Shown: positions 1-16,106, counted from the stretch's first letter. The stretch is DNA of 16,841 nucleotides from Promethearchaeia archaeon (GCA_029856045.1 JAHQWG010000051.1:1-16841); one strand, 5' to 3'. Made by a program: numbers and translations. The notes: generated by a model from the letters alone, not told the origin.

Positions 1-411
1 ATCTATAGCATCCTTTATAAATTGATGGGCAGGAAGAAAACGATGATTTTCTGCAATCATGAATTTCACGTTTGCTTTTTTAGTTGCTGCTATCATTTCA
101 TCGCATTCTTCAAGCGTCGTTGCCATCGGTTTTTCGCAAATTACGTGTTTCCCTGATTCAGCTGCAGCAACAACCATATCTTTATGAAGATAATGAGGGA
201 CCATGATGAGTACAGCATCAATATCGCTCTTAAAAAAATTATCTAAACTTAAATAAGTCTCTAGTTTAGAATATTTGGCAACCCTGTTTAGTTTTTTCTC
301 GTCGATATCATATGCAGAAACGAACTTTATTTTCGGATTATTTTTGGAGCCAAGCTTATGAAAACGCCATACTGCCCCCGTCCCAATTATACCAAATTTA
401 ATAAAATCCAT
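1..411 (-). CDS. Gfo/Idh/MocA family NAD(P)-dependent oxidoreductase (N-terminal 137 aa; runs off the left edge)
   Basis: Not in the ORF track; translated by hand from ATG at 411: MDFIKFGIIGTGAVWRFH...DIDAVLIMVPHYLHKDMVVAAAESGKHVICEKPMATTLEECDEMIAA...ENHRF. It has a GxGxxA-type Rossmann motif and the family hallmark GKHVxCEKP. SD-like AGAGGT lies just upstream. Confidence 0.93.
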   Translation of the reverse strand, partial: MDFIKFGIIGTGAVWRFHKLGSKNNPKIKFVSAYDIDEKKLNRVAKYSKLETYLSLDNFFKSDIDAVLIMVPHYLHKDMVVAAAESGKHVICEKPMATTLEECDEMIAATKKANVKFMIAENHRFLPAHQFIKDAID

Positions 412-513: not shown

Positions 514-1638
514 TTATTTAACAAAAATGTTTTTATCTAAACTTGAAAGCCTTTCACAACCAGATTTGGTAATCCTATAGCAATCTTCTACCCCAATCAA
601 ACCCTGATTTTTAAAATTTTGCCAAATTTCAATATCAAGAACCATATTCTCTTCAAACGGAATATCAAGGGTCTTCATTGGACTGAACAAATGAGTTTCC
701 TCACATTCTAATCCAATGCTATGACCTGTAATGAAACAACTTCCTCGCCTTGCAAGAGATTTATGATACTTTTTAGCATTGTTGTATAATTCTTTCATGT
801 TTAAGCCAGGTTTAATGTTCTCTACGCAATATTCTTGTACCATAATTATTCGATCCATAACTTCTTCAGCACTATCTGGTATTTGTCCTATCACGAGTTC
901 CCTACTAACATCTGATACATATCCTTTCCAAATGGTTCCAATATCAAATCTATTAAGATCTCCGGATTTCAGGGTGGTTCCTATTCCTGGTGCTTCGGGA
1001 TCAGAGGGTCCCAAGTTCATTGTAAGGTGATCCCATCCTTCTGCACCCTCATCAATTATAGTTCTTCTAGCTATTTGTAATAATTCATTATCGGTTATTC
1101 CTTCATGAGCCGCATCAATCATGGCTTTTATTGCCTTTTCAGAAATTTCCGTAGACTTTCTTATGCGTTTCACTTCCTCTTCTGATTTAATTAACCGCAT
1201 GTCCAAAAAAGCTTGATCACCATTAACAAAGGTCGCATTCGGAAATTTATTTCTTAAATATTCAGATTGATAAGAGGGCATTAGAGATTCATATCCTATA
1301 TTTTTTTCTGATAACCCCCATTTTTCAATTCTATCTGATACTTCTACCATTGCTGCTTTAGGAGACCCAATTCCACTTACATCCTTAACCCAAGAAAATT
1401 TATCTACACTACTGTACATAATCCAAGTTATTAAACTTTCTTCCCCATCCCTCCTTACTAAAGATAAACTTGGATATTGATTATATAAGACATATAAAAT
1501 AGGATTGGGAGCCACATGTAACGTTGGTAAGCCAGTTGTATAAAATACATTTACCGGAATAGAAGCAATCAACACATCAATATCATATTTTTCCAAACTA
1601 TTGCGCGCTTTTTCTTTACTAAAACCAATTGGTTCCAT
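514..1638 (-). CDS. M24 family (Xaa-Pro peptidase/creatinase-like fold) metallohydrolase
   Basis: Creatinase-like N-terminal domain, linker MRLIKSEEE, and pita-bread metal ligands D (RFDIG), D (YVSDVSR), H (GHSIGL), E (LDIEIW), E (GVEDC). Confidence 0.88.
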   Translation of the reverse strand: MEPIGFSKEKARNSLEKYDIDVLIASIPVNVFYTTGLPTLHVAPNPILYVLYNQYPSLSLVRRDGEESLITWIMYSSVDKFSWVKDVSGIGSPKAAMVEVSDRIEKWGLSEKNIGYESLMPSYQSEYLRNKFPNATFVNGDQAFLDMRLIKSEEEVKRIRKSTEISEKAIKAMIDAAHEGITDNELLQIARRTIIDEGAEGWDHLTMNLGPSDPEAPGIGTTLKSGDLNRFDIGTIWKGYVSDVSRELVIGQIPDSAEEVMDRIIMVQEYCVENIKPGLNMKELYNNAKKYHKSLARRGSCFITGHSIGLECEETHLFSPMKTLDIPFEENMVLDIEIWQNFKNQGLIGVEDCYRITKSGCERLSSLDKNIFVK

Positions 1639-1727: not shown

Positions 1728-2069
1728 CTAATCTATATCCATAAATATCTCTAATTTTTGTAGACTTCCCATATCTCCTTTGGTTTTAAGTTTTCCCTCC
1801 ATAAATGCCTCCATTGGATCTTCTTCTCCAGTAGAAATACCAATAAAGACATCTGAGTTAACTTCCAAACCCATTTCCGCATTTTCGTCAGAGCCATCCT
1901 CTAATCTTGCTGTTTTATTCTCAATAATCATTTTTAGTTTGTAATCAATATCTGGAAAGTCGAATTGCATTGTTTTATTAAATCCTTCAAATTCATCTGC
2001 AATTTCTGGATCGTCTAATAATTTGACCCATCTATTTAGAGCATCCTTAATTTCTTCAGCAGTAGCCAT
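1728..2069 (-). CDS. SCP2 sterol/lipid-binding domain protein (113 aa)
   Basis: C-terminal signature DPMEAFMEGKLKTKGDM is typical of SCP2. The start was moved from the track's GTG (2078) to ATG 2069 because that GTG is part of the SD (AAGGTG-tattta-ATG). Confidence 0.85.
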   Translation of the reverse strand: MATAEEIKDALNRWVKLLDDPEIADEFEGFNKTMQFDFPDIDYKLKMIIENKTARLEDGSDENAEMGLEVNSDVFIGISTGEEDPMEAFMEGKLKTKGDMGSLQKLEIFMDID

Positions 2070-2116
2070 TAAATACACCTTTCAATTACTTTATTAATTA
2101 TCTATTTTCCTTTTTT

Positions 2117-2250: not shown

Positions 2251-3144
2251 TTATTTTATTGCTTCTAATTGCGCTTGCCTTTTTGATAGTAAAAACGAAC
2301 TTATTAAGATAATAATCACACCGACACTCATGTAGATAATAGAAAGGAAGCTAGGAGGTGCTAACATGAATACTATAAAGTAAAATAATACTGGCGTCAC
2401 TTGAATGGGAACTTGTTGAATAGGAATCATATTTGATGCCTGAGCAACTTGAAAAGCTTGCGTAATTTTCATGATTCCAATAATACTACCTACAATTAAA
2501 ATTGCTACGCAACAAAGAAATAAAATAAATTCTCCTAAACTAGAAGTTCCTCCGAAGATATGAGCGATGACGCCCATCAATGGTGCAATCCAGAAGTTCG
2601 TGAGTGAAAATTGGAATCCTGAAGAAATTGCTAATAAAATCCCTTTAAACTTTTTACTTTTTCTTTGAAGAATTTCACATAAAACAGATCCTAAAAATAA
2701 AGTTACAGTAAAAATAGCCATTCTAAAAACAAGACCTATTTCTAATAAATCTATATTAGTGATATCAATTGACAATTCACTAATACCGAGTAAGAAAATC
2801 GCAATTATCATTAATAATATTCCTGTTATTTCTTCTTTTTTTAAGGTTTCACTAACAATTTTGACAGATCCGATAGCAAGAAAAATTAAACCAAAAGCCA
2901 TTAATCCCGGAATTAAAGCTGGACCAATATATACCTGAGCTAACATGAAAAATATTGATCCTATTGCTAGTTCCATCAATAAACCCGTTATCCAAAGCGG
3001 TTTTTTCACTAAATTACGGAAAAATTTCTCCTCCTCTGCAACAACTTCATTAACTACTTTTTTCTGGAAAACTAACCCGATATTATTCACGCATCCCGAA
3101 GTAATTGCTAGGAAGACCCCAAGCCAATATAAAGAAGCATCCAT
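2251..3144 (-). CDS. DMT-superfamily membrane transporter, NIPA (Mg2+ transporter)-like
   Basis: About 9 hydrophobic segments. The pattern GVFLAITS..NNIGLVFQKK / KPLWITGLL / PALIPGL / VSETL...GILL / QAFQ..QASNMIPI parallels NIPA-family DMT proteins. Confidence 0.7.
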   Translation of the reverse strand: MDASLYWLGVFLAITSGCVNNIGLVFQKKVVNEVVAEEEKFFRNLVKKPLWITGLLMELAIGSIFFMLAQVYIGPALIPGLMAFGLIFLAIGSVKIVSETLKKEEITGILLMIIAIFLLGISELSIDITNIDLLEIGLVFRMAIFTVTLFLGSVLCEILQRKSKKFKGILLAISSGFQFSLTNFWIAPLMGVIAHIFGGTSSLGEFILFLCCVAILIVGSIIGIMKITQAFQVAQASNMIPIQQVPIQVTPVLFYFIVFMLAPPSFLSIIYMSVGVIIILISSFLLSKRQAQLEAIK

Positions 3145-3191
3145 TTCTTTCAGCTCATCTATTTTCTCTTTTTTATAAAATATATAATCAC

Positions 3192-3222
3192 TAATTGATT
3201 TAATCAGTTAATAAATCTTTTC
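3192..3222 (-). promoter_or_regulatory. Putative BRE/TATA (GAAAAG-ATTTATTAA) with an abutting imperfect palindrome TAATTGATT-T-AATCAGTTA, upstream of the DMT gene
   Basis: Seen directly: 9-bp arms with 1 mismatch at 3192-3210, overlapping the 3' end of the TATA-like box at 3208-3216. Confidence 0.4.
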
Positions 3223-3248
3223 TCGAAAAAGTTGTGTATTATATTTAT

Positions 3249-3995
3249 TTAGACCGTCATGCCACCATCAATAGACAAGCTTATTCCGGTGCAAAATTCA
3301 TTGAGAGCGAGAAATAGCACACCTTCTGCAATTTCTTCGGGTGATCCTAACCTTCCCAAAAGTTGGCGTGCAATAAATTGACGTCTTGCTTCCTCAGGGT
3401 GTTCAAATTTTGCTAATCGTTTAGCTAGAGAAGGTGTATCAGTTGTACCTGGGCAAATACAGTTTACTCTTATTCGATCTTCGATATAATCAATAGCCAT
3501 GGCTCTCGTCATAGATAACACTGCACCTTTAGATGCAGTATACGCAGCTCTTTCCTTAACTCCTTTAAATGCAACAGATGATGCATTATTTATTATTGTT
3601 CCTTTAGTTTTTTTCAAATAAGGAATAGAATATTTTGATACTAAATAAACCCCCCGTACATTTACAGCCATTGTTCTGTCCCAATCCTTGGTAGAAATAT
3701 TATCTATTCTTCCTGGGAGAACAACACCCGCATTATTAAAAAGAATATCAATTTTTCCATATTTTTCAATCGTTTTCTCAATAATTCTTTTAGTATCTTC
3801 TTCTTTCGAAATATCACCTTGGACGAATATAGCATCACCACCTGAGCTTTTAATGGCATTTACAACTTTTAATGCAGATTCAGATATTGAGTTGCAACAA
3901 ACTTTAGATCCTTCCTTAGCAAATAGAATAGCTGTTGCCTCTCCAATACCAGCTCCGGCTCCAGTGATGACAGATACTTTTCCTTCTAATTTCAT
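3249..3995 (-). CDS. SDR oxidoreductase, BDH2/DHRS6 / 2-keto-3-deoxy-L-fuconate dehydrogenase-like subfamily
   Basis: TGAGAGIG, NNAG and catalytic YTASK. The C-terminal NCICPGTTDTPSL..R....PEEAR..F..RQ..GR closely matches the BDH2-type subfamily signature. Confidence 0.9.
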   Translation of the reverse strand: MKLEGKVSVITGAGAGIGEATAILFAKEGSKVCCNSISESALKVVNAIKSSGGDAIFVQGDISKEEDTKRIIEKTIEKYGKIDILFNNAGVVLPGRIDNISTKDWDRTMAVNVRGVYLVSKYSIPYLKKTKGTIINNASSVAFKGVKERAAYTASKGAVLSMTRAMAIDYIEDRIRVNCICPGTTDTPSLAKRLAKFEHPEEARRQFIARQLLGRLGSPEEIAEGVLFLALNEFCTGISLSIDGGMTV

Positions 3996-4028
3996 TTTTT
4001 TTCCCTCTTATTGTTAAACATGGATTAA

Positions 4029-4826
4029 TTATAACATAATAATTTTTCGCGCTTCAGAAGGATCAGCTGCATCACGGCCCATTTCTTTACAAATTCTCAC
4101 CATTCGACCTACTAATTCCGCATTATTTTTTGCGGGAACTTCTTGCCTTATGAAAGGATAATCTTCAGTTCCAACACGAACATTGCCACCATGTGCAATA
4201 GCTAAGGTAGCGATTTTTGTTTGTTTTTCTCCCATAACACTAATAGTATGTAAGCAATTTTCTGGCATATATTTTATCCGATGCAAATATTCATCAGCTG
4301 TGGGAGGAGACCATGTGCCACCAGGCCAGTTAAAAAATAATGTTAAGACATGAGGACTTTCAATCAAACCTTTCTTTATTAAATAGTTCAAATTCCAATA
4401 TGATCCCGTGTGCCATACCTCCCACTCAGGTTTAATGTTAAACTCTCTACATTTTATACAATATTCTTCCAATTCTTCTAGAGAGTGAATTCGATTTAAG
4501 TTCAATTGGGTAAAATGTTCATCATGGTGATTCAAGATAATAGAAAGCATATCTGGTCTTGCTTCAAAATCTCCTTTTCTATCAGGGATAATATCACTAG
4601 ACATACCTCCTTGAATTATTACATCACATTTTTCTCTAATCTTATTAACAATTTCAACCTCTTCTCCTCTAGGAAGATGTACATGAGCTATAGCTGCACC
4701 TGCCTCATAGCATTCTACTACATCTTTGATTAACGCATCAGTTGTTTCAGCCCAATTTTTAACGTTTGGATAAATCCAAGAATTTGCAGTTGTTGCAGTT
4801 ATAATTGTTTTTTCATATCCTTTCAT
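4029..4826 (-). CDS. DUF849 / beta-keto acid cleavage enzyme (BKACE, 3-keto-5-aminohexanoate cleavage family)
   Basis: AGAAIAHVH (Zn-binding HxH), KPEWE, GGNVRVGTED, NAELV, A.PSEAR. The start was set to ATG 4826, with SD GGTGAG overlapping the eda stop, rather than the track's TTG 4841. Confidence 0.9.
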   Translation of the reverse strand: MKGYEKTIITATTANSWIYPNVKNWAETTDALIKDVVECYEAGAAIAHVHLPRGEEVEIVNKIREKCDVIIQGGMSSDIIPDRKGDFEARPDMLSIILNHHDEHFTQLNLNRIHSLEELEEYCIKCREFNIKPEWEVWHTGSYWNLNYLIKKGLIESPHVLTLFFNWPGGTWSPPTADEYLHRIKYMPENCLHTISVMGEKQTKIATLAIAHGGNVRVGTEDYPFIRQEVPAKNNAELVGRMVRICKEMGRDAADPSEARKIIML

Positions 4827-4833
4827 TATATTC

Positions 4834-5517
4834 TCACCCAATTTTTTGATTTTTGAATTTTTTAATTAATTTTAGTGTTCTAGCTATATTTTCTTCTATT
4901 TTTCCCCAATTTTCAGATTCAATATACTCTTTCGTTATTAATTTTGATCCAATACCAAGTGCAATAACTCCTGCATCAAACCATGCATTAATATTTTCTT
5001 CGGTTATATTAACTCCTCCAGTTGGCATTAATTTTACCCAAGGCATTGGTGCTAATATGGCTTTAGCAAATTTTGGGCCACCTAATTCACCAGCTGGAAA
5101 AATTTTTATTATTTCACATCCCAACTCCTCTGCTTTTGATATTTCAGAAGGTGTTCCGCAACCCGGACAATAGGGAATTCTTCTTCTATTACATAGTTTG
5201 GCGATAGATGGATTTAATAATGGACCTACTACAAAGCTGGCTCCGTTATTAATATAAAGAGCAGCAGTATAAGGGTCAATAACCGATCCAACTCCAAAAA
5301 TTAACTGTGGTTTTTCTTTTTCAAAATATTTAACAAGTTTAGTGAAAACATCATAAGCAAAATCACCTCTATTTGTAAATTCAACAATTTTCCCACCACC
5401 TTTTGCAATACACTCGACAATTTTTCGAGCAATGTCAAAATTATTATTATAAAAAACTGGTATAAGACCTTGCTCAAGAATTGTGTTATATACTTCCAAA
5501 CTTGAAAATCTTGCCAA
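4834..5517 (-). CDS. eda: Bacterial-type KDPG/KHG aldolase (2-dehydro-3-deoxy-phosphogluconate aldolase)
   Basis: VEFTNR, GVGSV, PGCGTPSEI, Schiff-base lysine motif IKIFPA, MPTGGV. TTG start with SD AAGGTG 7 nt upstream. Confidence 0.92.
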   Translation of the reverse strand: MARFSSLEVYNTILEQGLIPVFYNNNFDIARKIVECIAKGGGKIVEFTNRGDFAYDVFTKLVKYFEKEKPQLIFGVGSVIDPYTAALYINNGASFVVGPLLNPSIAKLCNRRRIPYCPGCGTPSEISKAEELGCEIIKIFPAGELGGPKFAKAILAPMPWVKLMPTGGVNITEENINAWFDAGVIALGIGSKLITKEYIESENWGKIEENIARTLKLIKKFKNQKIG

Positions 5518-5540
5518 AATTAATCACCTTTTTTAATTAA

Positions 5541-6578
5541 TTATCTAGAAACACGCCCAGAAGTGTCTCCTCCCATCAATTTAAGAACTTCATCGATAGA
5601 CACTAAATTAAAATCTCCATATATTGTATGTTTTAAACATGACGCTGATACTGCAAAATTTAATATTTTTTGGTAATCATCTTTATACCTTAGAAATCCA
5701 AAGATTATACCTGCAGCGAAGGAATCGCCTCCACCAACTCGGTCTACTATTTGAGTTATATCATAATTTGGTCCAATATATAATTTGTCTCCATTAAAAA
5801 GAACACCTGACCAAGTATTATGACTCGCAGATATTGAACCTCGCAAAGTTATAGCAATATTTTTTAAATTTGGAAATTTTTTCATCAATTGTTCTCCTAC
5901 AAATTTATATTTTTGTGCATTTATTTTCCCAGAGGATATGTCAGTTTCTGGTGCTTTAATGCTAAAGACTTTATCTGCATCCTCTTCATTCCCAATTGCA
6001 AGATCGCAGTAATTAACAAGTTCTGACATAATATCAGATGGTTTTTTTCCATATTTCCATAATTTACTTCTATAATTTAAATCACAAGAAATAAAAACTC
6101 CTTTATTTTTTGCTACTTTTACTGCTTCGAGACAAATATCTGCTAAATCTTGTGAAATTGCTGGAGTAATCCCTGTCCAATGAAACCAATTTATTTCTTC
6201 AAAAATTTTATCCCATTCAAACATACCAATTTTAGCAGTTGAAATAGATGAATTTGCTCGATCATAAATTACCTTACTTCCTCGGGTTGAGGCTCCTTTC
6301 TCAAGATAATATATACCAAGCCGATCTCCACCCCTTATAATTTTATTAGTTTTAACACCATACTGACGTAAAAATTGAATACATGCATCTCCAATTTCAT
6401 TTTGGGGCAATCTTGTCACATAATATACGGGGATGCCAAAATTCGCCAATGATACAGCTACATTAGCCTCTCCTCCTCCATAAATTACTTCAAATGTTCT
6501 AGCTTGTATAAAACGCAAATAACTTGGAGGTGAAAGTCTAAGCATTATTTCTCCAAAAGTAACAACTTTTTCACTCAC
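5541..6578 (-). CDS. kdgK: 2-dehydro-3-deoxygluconokinase (PfkB sugar kinase, KdgK type)
   Basis: FGEIMLRLSP, GGGEANVA, V.YDR, GITPA, DLNYR.KLW, NEED and the PfkB anion hole DRVGGGDSF. It lies 23 nt upstream of eda. Confidence 0.92.
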   Translation of the reverse strand: MSEKVVTFGEIMLRLSPPSYLRFIQARTFEVIYGGGEANVAVSLANFGIPVYYVTRLPQNEIGDACIQFLRQYGVKTNKIIRGGDRLGIYYLEKGASTRGSKVIYDRANSSISTAKIGMFEWDKIFEEINWFHWTGITPAISQDLADICLEAVKVAKNKGVFISCDLNYRSKLWKYGKKPSDIMSELVNYCDLAIGNEEDADKVFSIKAPETDISSGKINAQKYKFVGEQLMKKFPNLKNIAITLRGSISASHNTWSGVLFNGDKLYIGPNYDITQIVDRVGGGDSFAAGIIFGFLRYKDDYQKILNFAVSASCLKHTIYGDFNLVSIDEVLKLMGGDTSGRVSR

Positions 6579-6660
6579 ATTAATTCTCTCTTTGATGGGT
6601 TGATCTTTAAATTAATGGGTTTTTTAAATTTCTTTAATATATTTTAATGATATTTTGAAA

Positions 6661-6674
6661 TATTAAATCCTTTT
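6661..6674 (-). promoter_or_regulatory. Putative BRE/TATA promoter of the kdgK-eda-BKACE-SDR operon
   Basis: Minus strand AAAAGGATTTAATA about 83 nt upstream of the kdgK GTG. A second near copy (AAAAGGATTTAAG) lies at about 6738-6750. Confidence 0.4.
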
Positions 6675-6828
6675 ATTTAAATTTTTAATAAAAGATAAAG
6701 AAAGTAATGAAAGTAAAAATTTTCTTATTTTATCTTCCTTAAATCCTTTTTATAAATAATATTTGAATCTAAAAAGAACACGGAAAAAGAATTTAATTAT
6801 TTTTAGATTATATTTTATTGAGTTAAAA

Positions 6829-7212
6829 TTGATTTGTGAAAATTGCGGGATTTGCTGCTATAAAACTGAAATGTTAATAACAGATGATGATATTAAAACA
6901 ATTCTTACTAATTACAATGCACCTTTAAAAGTCGATGTTTTTACGTTTAAAAATGAAGATGGGTACTGGCAATTAAAAAATGTGAATAAACATTGCTACT
7001 TTTTTGATGAAAAAACCAAATTGTGCAGTATTTATGAGTTTAGACCCGAGGGATGTCGGTATTATCCTTTGATTTATCTTGAAGATATAAATATATGCTC
7101 GCTTGATACAGATTGCCCAAGGCGCAATGAATTTTATCTGGATTGGAAACAACGTGAGGAAGCATCTGAAAAATTATTATATTACTTAAAAAAATATAAT
7201 TTTATCGAATGA
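6829..7212 (+). CDS. YkgJ family cysteine-cluster (CxxCxxCC) protein, putative Zn/Fe-chelating
   Basis: CENCGICC...CYFFD....CSIYEFRPEGCRYYP is the YkgJ pattern. The in-frame TTG at 6829 is preferred over the track's 6763 because the motif is normally N-terminal; the start is uncertain. Confidence 0.85.
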   Translation: MICENCGICCYKTEMLITDDDIKTILTNYNAPLKVDVFTFKNEDGYWQLKNVNKHCYFFDEKTKLCSIYEFRPEGCRYYPLIYLEDINICSLDTDCPRRNEFYLDWKQREEASEKLLYYLKKYNFIE

Positions 7213-8469: not shown

Positions 8470-10260
8470 ATTAAAAATTTAGAAAAGAAATATATAATCT
8501 TAGGATTTTTCTTCCTATTTTGCATAAGCAATTTTATGCAATTTAATCAAATTGAAATTAATTTCATTGAAGCTGATATTAAAGAAGAAATTTTACCAAA
8601 ACTGAGTGATCAAAATATCAATATAACCACACCGGAAAATAAAACCTACACAGAACCGATGAGTGGCTATTATTTAGCGACATTTGGGTTTGAACATGAT
8701 ATTGATGGAAATGTACCTTTTGGTTGGGCTGATACTTCAGATGCTGTGTGCGGTGCTAACGTTATTTCTGGGCTTGATGGATATAAGAAGGTTTTGGAGT
8801 GTTGGGATCAATCTGGGACTGGATGGTCAAATATACGTAATGATTTTACTCCGCAGGCAAATGGGACAGTTGAATGGTGGTGGCGTCAATCAAAATCTGG
8901 TGTTGCAGGACATATAAAAATTGGGGGTGGTCCAACTTTAAGATGGGCAATCACTGATCAATTACAGTATTATGATTCTGGGGGATTCCATAATGTTAAA
9001 TCAGTAAGTCCAGACCAATGGTACCATCATAAAATTGTTTTTAATTGTGATTTTGATACTTATGATTGGTATATTGATGGTGTTTTAGAAGCAGATGATT
9101 CAGAATTTGAAAATAGCAGATCAACTCTTGATTATTTTAGATTTTATACATGGACAACTCATCAAGATTACTCTTTTTATTTCGACGCTGTAAGTTATTC
9201 TTGGGATCCCAATTATAATATTGGAGAAAATACTCAAGAAGGTTTATTGCTTAACTTTGAAACTAATGAAACCTTAAGCTGGATGGGATATTCATTAGAT
9301 GAACTGAATAACAAAACAATTTTTGGTAATACAACTATTCCGGTACCATATGATGGATCACATTCGATTCAAGTGTTTGGAAACGACTCATTTGGAACTA
9401 TGTATCAATCTGATGTAAGATATTTTTCTGTGGATTTTAATCCTCCCGAAATTACAATAAATTCACCGAATCAAAACGGATCTTGTGGAATAACGGCTCC
9501 AAATTTTGATATTTCCATAATTGAACCAAATTTAAACAGTACTTGGTATTCAATAGATGATGGAATAACAAATACTACATTTAGTGGATTATCAGGGACA
9601 ATTAATCAAACAGAATGGGATAAGAAGGGAGAGGGTTTAGTGACCATTTTGTTCTATGCAGATGATACTTTAGGCCATATAGGATCTGCTAACGTTACTA
9701 TCTTAAAAGATACTATTTCGCCAATTTCATCGATATCATTTATACCACATGAAGGAAATAATGTAGTGAATAAATCAACAACTTTTAAAATTACCACCGA
9801 TGATGGTTTGGGCTCTGGAGTTTCTTTGATAAGGTATAAAATCAATGATTCTGATTGGATTGAATATAATGCCCCTTTTGCCTTATCTACATATAATGTT
9901 GGTGATTATAATATATCGTATCAAGCAATCGATGCGGCAGGTAATGCTGAAGAAATAAAATCAATTTTAGTGAAATTAGTGGAAATAGATAGTTTCAATG
10001 AAGAACTTCTTTTCATAATCATAATTATTGGATCAATTGCAGGATTAATTTTTAGCACATTAATGTTTTTAAAAGCTAAAAGCAAACCAAAAAAAGGACA
10101 AATAACTCCAGAAATACCTCGAGAGAGAGTACCCCCTGAAAAAACATTCCATGAAGTTCAAAAAACAGATATTATGCCTTCTTTTTGTCCTATGTGTGGA
10201 GAAAAAATAATGGGCGAAGAAAAATTTTGTAGTCATTGCGGGGCTGGTCTTGAGGATTAA
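8470..10260 (+). CDS. Large single-pass cell-surface protein: signal peptide, LamG/ConA-like and Ig-like domains, TM helix, cytoplasmic C-terminal zinc ribbon
   Basis: The track ORF 8536..10260 stays open upstream to TAA 8452, encoding IKNLEKKYIILGFFFLFCISNF (signal-peptide-like) after SD AGGTG. Other elements: WYHHKIVF..YDWYIDG (LamG-like), PEITINSP/WYSID/FYADD and SGV..I.YKIN/YQAIDAAGN (Ig-like), TM LLFIIIIIGSIAGLIFSTLMFL, and CPMC-x10-CSHC. Confidence 0.8.
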   Translation: MKNLEKKYIILGFFFLFCISNFMQFNQIEINFIEADIKEEILPKLSDQNINITTPENKTYTEPMSGYYLATFGFEHDIDGNVPFGWADTSDAVCGANVISGLDGYKKVLECWDQSGTGWSNIRNDFTPQANGTVEWWWRQSKSGVAGHIKIGGGPTLRWAITDQLQYYDSGGFHNVKSVSPDQWYHHKIVFNCDFDTYDWYIDGVLEADDSEFENSRSTLDYFRFYTWTTHQDYSFYFDAVSYSWDPNYNIGENTQEGLLLNFETNETLSWMGYSLDELNNKTIFGNTTIPVPYDGSHSIQVFGNDSFGTMYQSDVRYFSVDFNPPEITINSPNQNGSCGITAPNFDISIIEPNLNSTWYSIDDGITNTTFSGLSGTINQTEWDKKGEGLVTILFYADDTLGHIGSANVTILKDTISPISSISFIPHEGNNVVNKSTTFKITTDDGLGSGVSLIRYKINDSDWIEYNAPFALSTYNVGDYNISYQAIDAAGNAEEIKSILVKLVEIDSFNEELLFIIIIIGSIAGLIFSTLMFLKAKSKPKKGQITPEIPRERVPPEKTFHEVQKTDIMPSFCPMCGEKIMGEEKFCSHCGAGLED

Positions 10261-11442: not shown

Positions 11443-12027
11443 TTAATAAATTTTTTTTAATAACCAAGCCATATTTTTCCCTAAATTCTCAAAAGTTCTT
11501 ATACCTTCTTCATCATCTTCTACTTCTCCCGGTTCTAATCCGAAACCCATGTTCCAATAGCTTGAACCAGGTATTATCATTTGGTTTATTAAAAAGAAGT
11601 AATTAATAGCGCTCATAACAGTTGTAGCACCTGCTCTTCTTACGGCAATAACAGCTGCACCTACTTTTCTTTTAAACATATCACCGTTTACCTTAGATAC
11701 TAGTCCTGCTCTGTCAATCAAAGCTTTTACAGTAGTTGATACATTACTAAAAAATGTTGGAGACCCTATAATAATTCCATCTGCATCAAGCATCTTAGCA
11801 ATATATTCGTTCATTTTATCGTCCTTAATACTGCACTTTTTATTTTGATTTTCTTTGCAAAGATAACACTCTCTACATTGGCTCAATTTCTCCATACCAA
11901 TCCAAATCAATTCACATTTAATTTGTTCTTGTTCGAGCTCGTTCATTACCATTCGAAGGCAGTGATACGTGTTTCCCTTTTCTCGAGGACTTCCATTAAA
12001 CAATACTACCTTTATTGGCTTTTCCAT
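11443..12027 (-). CDS. Iron-sulfur flavoprotein (Isf) / flavodoxin-family NAD(P)H-dependent FMN reductase
   Basis: FMN loop NGSPREKGNT, the Isf Cys motif CxxCxxCx7C (CRECYLCKENQNKKC), IIGSPTFF, and PGSSYWN. SD AAGGTGA. Confidence 0.9.
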   Translation of the reverse strand: MEKPIKVVLFNGSPREKGNTYHCLRMVMNELEQEQIKCELIWIGMEKLSQCRECYLCKENQNKKCSIKDDKMNEYIAKMLDADGIIIGSPTFFSNVSTTVKALIDRAGLVSKVNGDMFKRKVGAAVIAVRRAGATTVMSAINYFFLINQMIIPGSSYWNMGFGLEPGEVEDDEEGIRTFENLGKNMAWLLKKIY

Positions 12028-12216: not shown

Positions 12217-14781
12217 ATGAGAAATCTAGAAAAAAAGTTGACTATTAAACTTACGGCTGTAATCGTGATTACAATTGTCTCAATGTCTCTTTTCTCTCTG
12301 GACTTAGGAATAATTCCCCCACTTGGAAGCCTTTTATTTCCAGGTAATGGATTGTGGAAGGTACCAGGGGAAGTCCCAGCAGTAGAAACACATACAATTC
12401 CTGGTTTGTCCGCTGATGTCACTGTTATTCGAGATGAATGGGGAGTACCACATATTTATGCTTCTAATGAAACTGATATGAATTTTGCTCTTGGATATTG
12501 TCATGCACAGGATAGATTTTTCCAGATGGATTTAGCAAGGAGATCTGTCCGTGGGAGGTTATCAGAGATTATTGGTCCCTCTGCTTTAAGTATGGATAAA
12601 TTTAATCTTGCAACTGGAAAAGAATATTGGGCGAATAAATCACTCCAAGCATTAATTCAAATGGATGAATCTGGAGAGATTGATATTATAGATAGGTTGT
12701 ATAGTTATGTTGAAGGAGTAAATTATTATCTAGAACAACAAAGATTAAGAAATGAAAAACCATTGGAATACTATCTTTTAGGTTTCGAACCAACTAAATG
12801 GACTGCCTTGGATTCTATGATTTATTCGAAATATATGGCTGAAATGCTAACATGGCAATATAGTGATTTATATAGAGCAATAAATTTCGAAGCTTTTGGT
12901 GCTATTAATTATACTGAGATTTTCGGCTTACCTACACCTTATCAAATCCCAATTTGTCCTGATTATGGCGAGTACGATGCTCCTCCTGGTGGTTTTTGGA
13001 CAGGATATACTCCAAATCCTTCGATGAGCTCTGTATATTCGAACTTTTTAACTGAAATAAAAAAAATTGATTCACAAAGAGAATTAATTGAATTACAAAA
13101 TGAAAATCTAATAGGTTCAAATAATTGGGTTGTAGATGGGACACTAAGTAATACTGGGAAACCAATACTCTGCAATGATATGCATTTAGCATGGAATATG
13201 CCAGGTATTTGGTATGAGGCTCATTTAGTCTCCTCCGATACCGATTTGAATATTTACTGTTTCACTCTGGCCGGTGTAAATGTACCCATTGTAGGACATA
13301 ACGAACATGTTGCATGGGGATTTACGAATGTTGCGTATGATGTTATGGACTGGTATTATTATAATTCAATCGATGAAGATCATTATATTTACGACGGTAC
13401 ATCGACTGCTTATACAACAAGAAGTTATTCCATCAACGTTAAAGGGCAAGATCCAGAAGAATTTACAGTTAAAGAAACAGTCCATGGACCTGTTTTAAAT
13501 GATTTCCTTGGTAGTAGTATTACAGAAGCTTTTGGAGATGTTGTATTAGCGCCTAGATGGACTTCAAATAATGTGACTCTTGAGTTTTTAGCTCTTTATG
13601 GTTTTAGTCATGCACATAATAGAACTGAATTTGATGAAGCATCAGAATATTTTCATAATCCTGCTCAAAATATGGTCTACGCGGATGTTGATGGCCACAT
13701 AGCGATCCGTCCAACAGGTTTAGTTCCTATTAGAGTAGGAAATGGAACCTTCCCTTACAATGGTTCCGCGGGTGAGGGAGAATGGACTGGGTATATTCCA
13801 TTCGAAAAATTACCGAATACATTAGACCCTTCTCAGCATTATTTAGCAAGTGCAAATCAAATAGCTACTGGTCCTGATTATATTGAATATTTCTTGCAAA
13901 ATTCATATTCTGATGGTTACAGAGCCAGAAGAATTAACGAATTGCTAAGTAAAGCTCCTGATGGGACTGTTAGTGTAGAGAAAATGATTGAAATTCAAAT
14001 GGATTTTAATTCAAGCTCTGCTCAAGCATTTACTCCTTATCTAATAAATGCAATTGAGACTAAATATGGTTCTAATCCATCTGACACTCAAATTAATGGG
14101 GTTCTAACGATTTTAAAAGATTGGAAATATGTTATGGATAAAGATTTGGCTGCACCCACCATTTATAGAAAATGGAGAGACTATTTCGATGATTATACTT
14201 TTGATGATGAAATTGAAGCATATAAAGCTGCCAGTGGACCAGGTTTAAATATCTTAGAGTATTTAATGAGAGAAGTTCCAAATTCTCATTGGTTTGATGA
14301 TATAAGCACATCAGCTGTTGAAAAACGGGATGATATCATTCTAACTGCCTTAGATGACACAATTGACTGGCTCGAAAACTTCTATGATTCAAGCGATCCT
14401 ACATCATGGAGGTGGGGAGATATCCATACAGTTTACTATGGTCATTTAACTGGATTAGAAGCGTTAAGTGTAGGTCCTTTTGAATGGTCTGGAAGTGGAC
14501 ACTGTATAACTCCCTCTGGAGTAAACATTAGAACTGGAGTTGGAAGAGCAAGAGGTGGATCATCAGAGAGATTAATTGTGGACTTCAGTAATTTAAATAA
14601 TACAATTAGTGTAATTCCATCGGGACAAAGTGGTCATTCTAATAGTAAACATTATTCGGATCAAGTGGAGAATTTGTTTCTTCTTGGAAAGTATCACGTA
14701 CAATATTTTACAAACACTCCCACTAACTTTCCAACGAGTTCTATAGAATCAAGAATATATTTTACAGCAGGAGGTGCTTAA
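12217..14781 (+). CDS. Penicillin acylase family (peptidase S45) Ntn hydrolase with an N-terminal membrane anchor
   Basis: RDEWGVPHIYA, GYCHAQDRFFQM, autoproteolytic G|SNNW (Ser codon 13117-13119), NDMHL, TVHGP, QNMVYAD, SANQ, GQSG; hydrophobic N-terminus. Confidence 0.93.
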   Translation: MRNLEKKLTIKLTAVIVITIVSMSLFSLDLGIIPPLGSLLFPGNGLWKVPGEVPAVETHTIPGLSADVTVIRDEWGVPHIYASNETDMNFALGYCHAQDRFFQMDLARRSVRGRLSEIIGPSALSMDKFNLATGKEYWANKSLQALIQMDESGEIDIIDRLYSYVEGVNYYLEQQRLRNEKPLEYYLLGFEPTKWTALDSMIYSKYMAEMLTWQYSDLYRAINFEAFGAINYTEIFGLPTPYQIPICPDYGEYDAPPGGFWTGYTPNPSMSSVYSNFLTEIKKIDSQRELIELQNENLIGSNNWVVDGTLSNTGKPILCNDMHLAWNMPGIWYEAHLVSSDTDLNIYCFTLAGVNVPIVGHNEHVAWGFTNVAYDVMDWYYYNSIDEDHYIYDGTSTAYTTRSYSINVKGQDPEEFTVKETVHGPVLNDFLGSSITEAFGDVVLAPRWTSNNVTLEFLALYGFSHAHNRTEFDEASEYFHNPAQNMVYADVDGHIAIRPTGLVPIRVGNGTFPYNGSAGEGEWTGYIPFEKLPNTLDPSQHYLASANQIATGPDYIEYFLQNSYSDGYRARRINELLSKAPDGTVSVEKMIEIQMDFNSSSAQAFTPYLINAIETKYGSNPSDTQINGVLTILKDWKYVMDKDLAAPTIYRKWRDYFDDYTFDDEIEAYKAASGPGLNILEYLMREVPNSHWFDDISTSAVEKRDDIILTALDDTIDWLENFYDSSDPTSWRWGDIHTVYYGHLTGLEALSVGPFEWSGSGHCITPSGVNIRTGVGRARGGSSERLIVDFSNLNNTISVIPSGQSGHSNSKHYSDQVENLFLLGKYHVQYFTNTPTNFPTSSIESRIYFTAGGA

Positions 14782-14783
14782 AT

Positions 14784-15176
14784 TTGGAAATAATTGAAAA
14801 AGAAAAATACTTTTTATTAAGTATCTTAGTTGGTGCAGTTCTTGCTGGAATTTTAAGCTTAATTCCATTGTGGCACTTGGTTCTTATTGCTGGAATAGTA
14901 GCTGGATTATTGAATCGAACAATGAAGAAGGGAACTTTAAGCGGTGCTGCAGGTGTATGTGTTTGTTGGCTAATAATTATGATCTACGGCATGGTAGTAA
15001 TTAATGCTTACACGTTGATGGATCAATTTGGAGCGCTTCTTATTGGACCCGGGTTTGGCTGGTTGATTTTTATTATTATTTTGCTGGTTGGAACTTTGTT
15101 TGGTGCATTAGGTGGGGCAATTGGAAGTGCAGTGATGATTATAATAAAAGGATATGAAACGTCTGAAAGTTCTTAA
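14784..15176 (+). CDS. Small Gly-rich 4-TM membrane protein (DUF5518-like), coupled to the acylase
   Basis: About four hydrophobic helices with GxxxG motifs (GIVAG, GTLFGALGGAIG). It starts at TTG 2 nt after the acylase stop, with SD GGAGGTG inside the acylase 3' end. The family name is tentative. Confidence 0.75.
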   Translation: MEIIEKEKYFLLSILVGAVLAGILSLIPLWHLVLIAGIVAGLLNRTMKKGTLSGAAGVCVCWLIIMIYGMVVINAYTLMDQFGALLIGPGFGWLIFIIILLVGTLFGALGGAIGSAVMIIIKGYETSESS

Positions 15177-15311: not shown

Positions 15312-16106
15312 ATGAAAAAAAACAATAAGGAACTTGATTTTGTCAAGGGAATATTAACAGATATAGATGGAACACTATATTTTAAAGGAGCCCCAATTCC
15401 AGGAGCAATAGAAACCGTCTCCAGACTTCGTGATGCTGGCATTAAACTTATTTTTTTAACGAATACAGACAGTAAATCACCACGAACAGTAATAAAAACC
15501 CTTCAAGAATATGGGTTTAATATTAAAGATGAAGAAGTTTTTACGCCCATTATTGCTTTAAAGGAATTTTTGTCAAATTTTCCCAATAAAAAATCTTATT
15601 TGGTGACTACAAAAGAAGTTGAAATGGAATTTCATGATATTACTCAGGTTAAAGGGTCTGAAAAAGCTGATTTTGTTATCATAAGTGATTTTCATGATGA
15701 TTGGAGTGTTGATCGGCTCAATGAAGCATTTAAATATGTATTAAAGGGTGCAAAACTTCTGGGAACACAGGGAAATCGATATTATCTTGATCGTAATGGT
15801 GAGCCGGTTATTGATACAGGTTCTTTCGTGCAAATGATCGCCAATGCAACCAATGTTACTCCAAGAATATTTGGGAAACCCTCGGCAGACTATTTCAATA
15901 ATGCTTTAAAAAAAATTAATCTTACTGCAAATAAAACTATTGTCATTGGTGATGACCTTGAATCTGATATCCAAGGAGCAAACAATGCTGGTATTAAAGG
16001 TGTGTTAGTAAAAACTGGGAAAAGCCAATCTATAACACCCTCAGAAATGTTAATAAAACCCTATAAGATCATTAATTCCTTTAGTTCTATTTTAGAATTT
16101 CTTTGA
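15312..16106 (+). CDS. HAD-IIA hydrolase, LHPP/HDHD2-like phosphatase
   Basis: Motif I DIDGTL, motif II LTN, motif III GKPS, motif IV IGDDLESDIQGA, and LVKTGK. Confidence 0.9.
   Translation: MKKNNKELDFVKGILTDIDGTLYFKGAPIPGAIETVSRLRDAGIKLIFLTNTDSKSPRTVIKTLQEYGFNIKDEEVFTPIIALKEFLSNFPNKKSYLVTTKEVEMEFHDITQVKGSEKADFVIISDFHDDWSVDRLNEAFKYVLKGAKLLGTQGNRYYLDRNGEPVIDTGSFVQMIANATNVTPRIFGKPSADYFNNALKKINLTANKTIVIGDDLESDIQGANNAGIKGVLVKTGKSQSITPSEMLIKPYKIINSFSSILEFL

Follow-up and report, generated by a model that had tools for sequence, protein, structure and literature searches.

What does a divergent member of the BKACE (DUF849) family, known for the cleavage of beta-keto acids, do in a row with genes for a sugar-acid kinase, an aldolase and a short-chain dehydrogenase/reductase (SDR)? 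The question is raised by positions 3,249–6,578 of a 16,841-nucleotide stretch of DNA from a Promethearchaeia archaeon (GCA_029856045.1, JAHQWG010000051.1:1-16841), which is called the window here. The window is the entire contig C50 of a 3.34-Mb genome with 30% GC content (G000), and the public relatives of its proteins are consistent with a Lokiarchaeial (Asgard) host. An original prediction, made from the sequence of the window, treated the four genes as a kdgK-eda-BKACE-SDR operon in which the SDR and BKACE form a cleavage branch. The four genes are best explained as the end nearest the promoter in a conserved catabolic cluster that comprises at least 11 genes. In this cluster, the BKACE-fold enzyme may form the 2-keto-3-deoxy acid that is consumed by KdgK and Eda, a reading to which we assign a probability of about 0.35. 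The four genes and the region upstream of them are:

6579–6762, no strand: AT-rich intergenic region, read as sequence; presumed promoter region upstream of the kinase gene, shared with a divergent gene (6763–7212) encoding a CxxCxxCC protein

5541–6578, minus strand: KdgK-like PfkB sugar-acid kinase, 345 amino acids, GTG start (PF00294, 116 bits; PDB: 2AFB)

4834–5517, minus strand: Eda-type KDPG/KHG aldolase, 227 amino acids (PF01081, 132.8 bits against 27.8; NF005499, PRK07114, 320.9 against 275)

4029–4826, minus strand: divergent BKACE/DUF849-fold zinc enzyme, 265 amino acids from the ATG at 4826 (PF05853, 160 bits against 24.8)

3249–3995, minus strand: SDR1, short-chain dehydrogenase of the 2-keto-3-deoxy-L-fuconate (L-KDF) 4-dehydrogenase/BDH2 type, 248 amino acids (PF13561/PF00106)

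The open reading frame (ORF) listing contains four co-directional frames on the minus strand (5541–6578, 4834–5517, 4029–4841, and 3249–3995), and the junctions between them were read directly. The kinase stop codon is separated from the eda start by 23 nucleotides. The eda TGA occupies positions 4836–4834 and is followed, after 7 nucleotides, by an ATG at 4826, which is the likely start of BKACE rather than the upstream TTG at 4841. The BKACE stop is 33 nucleotides from the ATG of SDR1, and the Shine-Dalgarno-like GGGTGAG of BKACE overlaps the eda stop. The gene order, the three gaps and the overlap were all given in the original prediction and are confirmed. Its gene identities are upheld by profile and PDB matches, and we agree that the window encodes no FAH-family protein. 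Because the gaps further downstream are wider (104, 172, 89, and 102 nucleotides) and a run of five T residues follows the SDR1 stop, the four genes may be one transcription unit within a longer co-directional run. The downstream half of the cluster, with the SCP2, M24 and Gfo genes, had been missed, and comprises:

2251–3144, minus strand: NIPA/DMT-like membrane protein, probable carrier, 297 amino acids; no Pfam match of its own, weak Mg_trans_NIPA match in the ORF of a relative

1728–2078, minus strand: SCP2 lipid/acyl-CoA-binding domain protein, 116 amino acids (PF02036)

514–1638, minus strand: M24 (creatinase/prolidase-fold) metallohydrolase, 374 amino acids (PF00557 and PF01321)

1–411, minus strand: Gfo/Idh/MocA dehydrogenase, N-terminal 137 amino acids, cut by the contig end (PF01408)

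The remainder of the Gfo gene is located on the minus strand of contig C22 of the same genome (4579–5202). The two pieces correspond to residues 1–137 and 171–377 of the orthologue in locus L001, about 33 residues are missing between contigs C50 and C22, and the cluster has therefore been split by the assembly. Contig C22 (1–5203) additionally carries genes for a GH5 enzyme with an endoglycoceramidase-type C-terminal domain (2561–4483), a PIG-L deacetylase (1666–2463), and a second NIPA-like protein (680–1585). The relative's ORF with the weak Mg_trans_NIPA match also encodes a URO-D-like domain and is possibly a junction of two genes.

The link between BKACE and KdgK is preserved well beyond the window. 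We called, clustered and labelled the ORFs of 80 species-level loci from GTDB genomes and 40 hand-fetched loci. Only 3 of the 80 species-level loci have the kdgK-eda-BKACE-SDR order in full, two in the genus of the window and one in another lineage, and to these the order given in the original prediction is confined. The kinase gene lies immediately upstream of BKACE in 38 of the 70 loci with sufficient flank, and one gene is inserted between them in four more, which gives 42/70. SDR1 directly follows BKACE in 38 of 75 loci. With arrowheads giving gene direction, the genes of a typical locus in Lokiarchaeia are GH20<, GH5>, kinase>, BKACE>, an optional URO-D-like gene>, SDR1>, Gfo>, Asp/Glu-type racemase>, SDR2<, Gfo>, M24<, SCP2<, PIG-L<, NIPA-like<. 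M24 genes were found in 59/80 loci, NIPA-like genes in 31/80, and SCP2 genes in 30/80 Asgard loci.

In a survey of 301 sampled Asgard genomes, BKACE orthologues (at least 58% identity) were present in 59. In the family of the window, the kinase (at least 67% identity) and BKACE occur together in 36 genomes, the kinase alone in 4, and BKACE alone in 3; these genomes are related, and the counts are hence not independent of one another. Each of the two genes is patchily distributed within single genera, yet they track each other, and within this Lokiarchaeial family they have been gained and lost together. DUF849 is thus linked to KdgK/Eda in a real and non-random way, as the adjacency, the co-occurrence and the flanking genes of the sister clade described below demonstrate, and the search of gene neighbourhoods for DUF849 beside kdgK or eda was positive both in Asgard archaea and in that clade. 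Loki-type clusters with BKACE proteins 70–79% identical to that of the window were also found in contigs deposited as Ignavibacteria (L103), Nanopelagicaceae (L132), and Dehalococcoidia (L174) metagenome-assembled genomes (MAGs), which are probably mis-binned Asgard sequences.

The invariant core of the cluster consists of BKACE, SDR2, M24 and Gfo. SDR2 belongs to the second of two SDR orthogroups found in the clusters, SDR1 being the window gene. SDR1 is missing beside BKACE in about a third of the Asgard loci and throughout a bacteria-like sister clade, and the constant partner of BKACE, together with M24 and Gfo, is SDR2. The original pairing of BKACE with the KDF-dehydrogenase-like SDR of the window is therefore not supported.

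The sister clade comprises more than 1000 proteins that are 45–50% identical to the window BKACE and originate from MAGs labelled as Spirochaetota or Acidimicrobiia and from many unlabelled contigs. The order of genes is nearly universal in this clade: Gfo-M24, in some cases preceded by SCP2, then BKACE, SDR2 and an extended-SDR "epimerase". Gfo and M24 often form one polypeptide, which has 756 amino acids in L179 (6699–8969). In L181–L184, the fusions are SCP2-Gfo-M24 proteins of 929–937 amino acids (for example L181:6141–8954 and L183:6180–8969), and both kinds of fusion are encoded directly upstream of BKACE. The fused Gfo and M24 parts are 49–57% identical to the Asgard proteins, and the fusions constitute a Rosetta-stone link among three separate genes of the window. 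Furthermore, kdgK and eda lie beside the sister-clade module in L181–L184 and, among 43 metagenome loci of at least 8 kb, in 10. They do so in three arrangements, which indicates that the link of KdgK and Eda to BKACE was kept or re-made independently. In L180, a gene for RidA (enamine/imine deaminase; 9826–10236) starts 34 nucleotides after the sister-clade BKACE. An FGGY kinase, a 2-hydroxyacid dehydrogenase and a class II aldolase are encoded near this RidA gene, and the same trio is present in L089.

The best solved relative of the window kinase is the 2-keto-3-deoxygluconate (KDG) kinase of Thermotoga maritima (PDB: 2AFB), aligned over residues 4–345 with an E-value of 1e-107. The protein scores below the cut-offs of the NCBIfam KDG-kinase equivalogs, the best of which is NF041332 (213 bits against 440). 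Another model, NF041633, describes a fusion protein, and its kinase half is matched at 527 bits against a cut-off of 700. The aldolase gene is the only eda of the genome, and Eda was found in 36 of the 40 kinase-positive genomes of the family. The close relationship of the kinase to KdgK and its co-occurrence with Eda across the family argue that its product is a substrate of a KDPG-type aldolase. In most other relatives, a canonical Eda (220–240 Pfam bits) is encoded on a separate contig. A divergent Eda (123–136 Pfam bits) within the cluster is restricted to the genus of the window and to genome G258, which have no other copy. The aldolase located between the kinase and BKACE looks like one recruited into the cluster, and this recruitment argues that the kinase and aldolase serve the cluster. 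Homology and phyletic coupling thus point to KdgK and Eda as the exit of the pathway, for a 2-keto-3-deoxy-hexonate.

The AlphaFold2 model of the window BKACE (pLDDT 95.5) has the TIM-barrel fold of DUF849. A Foldseek search aligned it to PDB entries 3C6C, 3LOT, 2Y7D, and 8RIP with TM-scores of 0.85–0.91 and sequence identities of 20–25%, and the identity to every solved member of the fold, characterised or not, is only 20–25%. In the alignment with Kce (PDB: 2Y7D), the zinc ligands His46, His48, and Glu230, the catalytic Glu143, as well as Arg226 and Asp231 are retained in the motifs AHVH, PEWEVW, and RVGTED. Among 40 sequences of the BKACE subfamily, E136, R217, and G219 are invariant, and H48, H50, E221, and D222 are present in at least 90%. 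The canonical S/T-T-G-G and LNxGSxNF loops are substituted in the subfamily by GGMSS and LNHHDEHF, with invariant His and Glu residues. The position of Kce Tyr145, equivalent to Tyr173 of PdKce and believed to touch the sulfur of coenzyme A (CoA), is occupied by Trp138, which is invariant in a ten-sequence alignment. The same position is Phe in RaKce and in one canonical BKACE paralogue of G000, so that Tyr145 says little as a marker of canonical chemistry.

The window protein is far below the cut-offs of all NCBIfam equivalogs of the family: 137 bits against 382 for Kce, 97 against 430 for the 3,5-dioxohexanoate enzyme, and 91 against 350 for the 3-oxoadipate enzyme. Of the five intact BKACE paralogues in the genome it is the most divergent, and the other four are more canonical. 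Identity with the Kce of lysine fermentation can be rejected, as the four paralogues are better Kce-like candidates. The anaerobic phloroglucinol pathway, which also combines an SDR, a ring hydrolase and a BKACE, does not match because its ring hydrolase is of the "cyclase" family and not M24. Partner genes matching carnitine and ectoine routes were not seen. The structure search does not arbitrate between canonical and non-canonical chemistry, since cis-epoxysuccinate hydrolase (PDB: 5ZMU) is structurally as near to the window protein as Kce. BsfD, a BKACE-fold enzyme (PDB: 9ZSC), transfers an acetyl group without cleavage (bioRxiv 10.64898/2026.01.15.699783). Three chemistries are therefore already present in the family, namely retro-Claisen cleavage, acetyl transfer without cleavage, and epoxide hydrolysis, and together with the large sequence distance they mean that function is not transferable to the window BKACE. 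The window protein shares the TIM barrel, the His-x-His/Glu zinc site and the catalytic Glu, Arg and Asp with Kce, PdKce (PDB: 8RIP), BsfD and cis-epoxysuccinate hydrolase, and differs from them in its low identity, replaced loops, and invariant Trp.

The best PDB match of SDR1 is 4DQX (E-value 6.9e-62, 212 bits), which has been grouped with the type-2 L-KDF 4-dehydrogenases (PMC11199699), followed by human DHRS6/BDH2 (PDB: 2AG5; 2e-50, 174 bits) and the L-KDF dehydrogenases 8XWK and 8Y4J (144 bits). The equivalents of the substrate-binding Arg170 and Arg231, ligands of the C1 carboxylate and the ring oxygen, are kept. By sequence, SDR1 is a member of the L-KDF 4-dehydrogenase/BDH2 group, and the prediction of a BDH2-like SDR holds. 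SDR2, 258 residues long, is closest to models of 3-hydroxybutyrate dehydrogenase, with 230 bits against a cut-off of 258. It has His and Glu in place of the two Arg ligands, and we accordingly rejected it as a second KDF-type 4-dehydrogenase that would form a C4-epimerase pair with SDR1.

The SDR2 gene of G000 is not in the window. It is found on contig C36, next to the remnant of a second BKACE copy. This second locus (121527–129949) retains the last approximately 58 residues of the copy, 72% identical to the window protein, followed by genes for a FucI/AraA-like protein and three GPH-type MFS carriers and by two SDR2 genes. The second BKACE is intact in the sister genome G125 and has an internal stop codon in G177.

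An FAH-family gene directly follows the BKACE orthologue in two other Asgard families, and its product is closest to 2,4-didehydro-3-deoxy-L-rhamnonate hydrolase. These variant clusters (L069–L072; families f15 and f21) have the order Gfo<, M24>, SDR2-like>, BKACE>, FAH>, and in L069–L071 (f15) the genes after FAH encode a xylose-isomerase-like TIM-barrel protein, an IlvD paralogue and a further Gfo. No kinase or Eda was found in the searched genomes of the two families. The genome of the window encodes one short FAH elsewhere (C51:60388–61068). The presence of FAH beside BKACE, together with the occurrence of BKACE without SDR1, argues against the idea that BKACE replaces the FAH hydrolase.

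In M24, all five metal ligands of Pyrococcus furiosus prolidase are kept. The motif GHSIGLECEE, compared with GHGVGLEVHE in prolidase, has lost one His, which suggests that M24 acts on a non-peptide substrate. The Gfo proteins are weakly IolG-like (approximately 150 bits against a cut-off of 355), and no supporting partner genes were found for an inositol route of the T. maritima type, which we do not favour.

Taken together, the genes are consistent with an oxidative route to a 2-keto-3-deoxy-hexonate, and then to pyruvate and glyceraldehyde-3-phosphate, that would be fed by a sugar freed from glycoconjugates; the likeliest candidates are N-acetylhexosamines and hexoses. The sugar would be oxidised at C1 by the Gfo/Idh/MocA enzyme, and the product, a lactone or a compound with an N-acyl group, would be hydrolysed by M24, which is fused to Gfo in other lineages. 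The SDRs would change either the stereochemistry or the oxidation state, and the site of SDR1 would be C4 of 2-keto-3-deoxy acids. The BKACE zinc enzyme would draw on the capacity of its family to deprotonate a metal-bound acid at C2 and would eliminate the C3 hydroxyl to give the 2-keto-3-deoxy acid; starting from a 2-amino acid, the elimination would also free ammonia. KdgK would then phosphorylate the 2-keto-3-deoxy acid and Eda would cleave it. The identities of the genes, their clustering, the fusions and the phyletic coupling are supported by sequence and comparative evidence; the proposed substrates and the putative roles of BKACE, M24 and the SDRs are suggested by genomic context.

Several observations favour the formation of the 2-keto-3-deoxy acid by BKACE. 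When the copies of the genome itself served as tblastn queries, a homologue of the enolase superfamily or of IlvD/EDD was detected in just 11 of 212 neighbourhoods (2.7 Mb). Across genomes, enolase-type and UxaA-type dehydratases are only loosely co-distributed with the kinase, which disqualifies either as its obligatory partner, whereas BKACE is tightly co-distributed with it. Relatives of BKACE adjoin genes for other consumers of 2-keto-3-deoxy acids: FAH in the two Asgard families, an HpcH aldolase, and an RraA-like protein. The fusion of Gfo and M24 fits consecutive steps for the two enzymes. GH20, PIG-L, and Asp/Glu-type (amino-acid) racemase genes in some Asgard loci indicate amino sugars, the oxidised forms of which are alpha-amino acids. 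If M24 is the hydrolase and BKACE the eliminating enzyme, the seven enzymes map one-to-one onto published routes from sugars to KDG (PMC12632266; PMC9537276). The remodelled pocket, with its invariant His and Glu residues, and the non-canonical chemistry known for the fold also count in favour.

Other observations weigh against it. We know of no dehydratase or ammonia-lyase activity in the BKACE fold. The complete set of residues for the canonical reaction with acetyl-CoA is retained, and the BKACE-SDR2 pair, which is invariant and in many cases overlaps, is what one classically expects where a dehydrogenase supplies the beta-keto acid. SCP2, a lipid/acyl-CoA binder in the core, has no role in the proposed route. 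Some genomes have the core without any kinase, Eda or SDR1, and an IlvD-family dehydratase is encoded about 1 kb from the FAH-type clusters. Finally, contig C25 of the window genome (80000–90000; L265) carries genes for IlvD, Gfo, a UxaA-like altronate/galactarate dehydratase (no SAF domain in the ORF), RidA, and a D-serine-dehydratase-like pyridoxal phosphate (PLP) enzyme, and this locus could be an alternative source of KDG for the only KdgK and Eda of the genome. Its RidA and PLP enzyme are reminiscent of OngC and OngD, a pair in the oxidative chitin pathway.

Nearly as likely as the elimination to a 2-keto-3-deoxy acid is a canonical BKACE branch. Gfo would oxidise a 2-deoxy, 2-amino-2-deoxy or N-(3-hydroxyacyl) sugar, M24 would open the lactone or remove the acyl group, and SDR2 would oxidise a 3-hydroxy acid to a 3-keto acid, from which BKACE and acetyl-CoA would form acetoacetate and a shorter acyl-CoA; KdgK, Eda, and SDR1 would take the second product or a second sugar of the same glycoconjugate. 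The Pfam family, the presence of every catalytic residue, the BKACE-SDR2 adjacency that is invariant across domains, and the similarity of SDR2 to 3-hydroxybutyrate dehydrogenase all agree with such a branch, which would also account for an acyl/lipid binder that is in the core and even fused. The combination of Gfo, hydrolase, SDR and BKACE mirrors the four steps of the oxidative deoxyribose pathway (PMC6365646), and the FGGY kinase, 2-hydroxyacid dehydrogenase and class II aldolase near BKACE in two bacteria could take a C4 acid product. However, judging from the genes for GH20, GH5, PIG-L and GPH carriers, the sugars concerned yield no beta-keto acid with a C2 methylene, and the tight, repeatedly re-invented linkage to KdgK and Eda is left unexplained. 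The replacement of the carboxylate and substrate loops of characterised BKACEs, and scores far below every equivalog cut-off, also speak against the branch.

The remaining alternatives are less probable. On the model of the original prediction, SDR1 would oxidise a 2-keto-3-deoxy acid at C4, and cleavage of the resulting 2,4-diketo acid by BKACE with CoA or acetyl-CoA would give an acyl-CoA and pyruvate or acetylpyruvate, so that a thioester is conserved where FAH would hydrolyse. SDR1 is a genuine member of the L-KDF-dehydrogenase/BDH2 group and often directly follows BKACE, the acidity at C3 of a 2,4-diketo acid equals that at C2 of a beta-keto acid, and the SDR, BKACE, FAH order of the FAH-type clusters would match dehydrogenation, acyl exchange and acetylpyruvate hydrolysis. 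We nevertheless consider this sequence of reactions, though chemically conceivable, doubtful, given the many clusters without SDR1, the missing Arg ligands of SDR2, and the co-occurrence of FAH with BKACE. The source of the 2-keto-3-deoxy acid would still be missing and would require an unseen dehydratase. Moreover, 2,4-diketo acids do not belong to the beta-keto acids, and their cleavage would therefore be new chemistry for the BKACE family, without precedent, and is not supported. It is slightly less probable still that BKACE is an isomerase or epimerase of keto-sugar acids, for example a KduI/DhuI-like 5-keto-4-deoxyuronate isomerase or a 2-oxo/3-oxo acid isomerase, with an SDR then reducing the product to KDG. 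The kdgK-eda-X-SDR layout would be analogous to the kdgK-kdgA-kduI-kduD modules, small cupins of KdgF-like size precede the relatives in L086–L088 and L180, related loci encode sulfatases as well as carriers of the GPH (hexuronide) type, and a zinc ion with a Glu base suits enediol chemistry. But no polysaccharide lyase or GH88/GH105 enzyme is present among the annotated neighbours, Gfo and M24 would be left without a role, and SDR1 is not KduD-like, KduD being outside its 25 best NCBIfam matches. That KdgK-Eda and BKACE-SDR are independent units brought together by chance or in a genome island, with no common pathway, is very improbable. In its favour, the content of the cluster is mosaic and variable, but the gaps of 7–33 nucleotides, the adjacency in 42/70 loci, the coupled gain and loss (36 genomes with both genes, against 4 and 3), and the independent re-association in three gene orders in the sister clade all count against it.

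The cluster can be compared with four known pathways. The oxidative 2-deoxyribose/2-deoxyribonate pathway of Pseudomonas, Paraburkholderia and Burkholderia (Price et al., PMC6365646) likewise clusters a sugar dehydrogenase, a ring-opening hydrolase, an SDR, and DUF849/BKACE, and is a sugar-acid route that uses this family. This pathway is not known to include KdgK/Eda, M24, SCP2 or a Gfo-M24 fusion, and its BKACE acts on a true 2-deoxy-3-keto acid. The substrate loops of the Asgard BKACE differ, with 20–25% identity to the solved folds. Gfo, M24, SDR2 and BKACE are clustered in most loci, SDR2 being on another contig in G000, and M24 is not a known lactonase family. The oxidative chitin (ong) pathway of Pseudoalteromonas (PMC9537276) converts N-acetylglucosaminate (GlcNAc1A) via glucosaminate (GlcN1A) and KDG to KDG-6-phosphate, and includes GH20, an amino-sugar-acid N-deacetylase, a KDG-forming deaminase accompanied by RidA, and KdgK. 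The Asgard loci resemble it in that some carry GH20, PIG-L, M24 amidohydrolase-type and Asp/Glu-type racemase genes, and RidA stands beside BKACE in one relative. They differ in that the cluster lacks both the D-aminoacylase family of OngB and the PLP enzyme family of OngC, and in that oxidation would be catalysed by an NAD-dependent Gfo instead of a lytic polysaccharide monooxygenase. By analogy, BKACE might act as a deaminase in the style of the ong pathway.

The routes from L-glucose and L-galactose to KDG in Luteolibacter LG18 (PMC12632266) proceed through a sugar 1-dehydrogenase, aldonate oxidation and re-reduction, a dehydratase, KDG kinase, and KDPG aldolase, seven steps compared with seven clustered proteins. 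Their altronate dehydratase and epimerase belong to known families, whereas the non-redox steps in Asgard archaea would fall to M24 and the BKACE-fold protein. The non-phosphorylative L-fucose/L-rhamnose pathway (PMC11199699) shares with the cluster a dehydrogenase of the L-KDF/BDH2 group with its Arg ligands and, in two Asgard families, an FAH after BKACE. It differs in that the window has no FAH, enolase-type fuconate dehydratase or known lactonase, and has a kinase and an aldolase instead. Full-text literature searches on BKACE/DUF849, sugar-acid, and Asgard Entner-Doudoroff/KDG topics found no published description of the cluster.

Apart from the cluster, the window encodes a 574-residue protein of which a C-terminal zinc ribbon is the sole recognised part (8536–10260), an FMN reductase (11443–12027), an 854-residue penicillin amidase of the Ntn-hydrolase type (12217–14781) directly followed by a small DUF5518-like membrane protein (14784–15176), and a HAD hydrolase (15312–16106). 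The C-terminal portion of an AMP-binding enzyme is encoded at the contig end. An Rfam scan of the window gave no match.

The locus is best described as an oxidative sugar-acid catabolic cluster, with a fair chance of a new reaction type for two well-known folds. In its full form, put forward tentatively, our proposal is that BKACE is a new sugar-acid or amino-sugar-acid dehydratase/ammonia-lyase that works with an M24 "peptidase"-fold lactonase or N-deacylase, fused in some lineages to Gfo and SCP2. These enzymes would form the hitherto unrecognised upper half of a semi-phosphorylative Entner-Doudoroff-type route that is widespread in Asgard archaea and the bacteria-like sister clade and possibly serves the anaerobic oxidation of N-acetylhexosamines. 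The core of SCP2, Gfo, M24, BKACE, and SDR is encoded together with more than 1000 sister-clade proteins from metagenomes and MAGs, and the natural fusions are ready-made constructs for assays. If BKACE forms the 2-keto-3-deoxy acid, a new reaction type would be added to the BKACE and M24 folds; if it is a canonical cleavage enzyme, the cluster would show that anaerobes can split a carbon-carbon bond of a sugar-derived acid in a CoA-dependent reaction. In these Lokiarchaeia, serving the cluster appears to be the main task of KdgK and Eda, and the cluster would thus define the path by which glycoconjugate sugars enter central metabolism in a major group of Asgard archaea from sediments.

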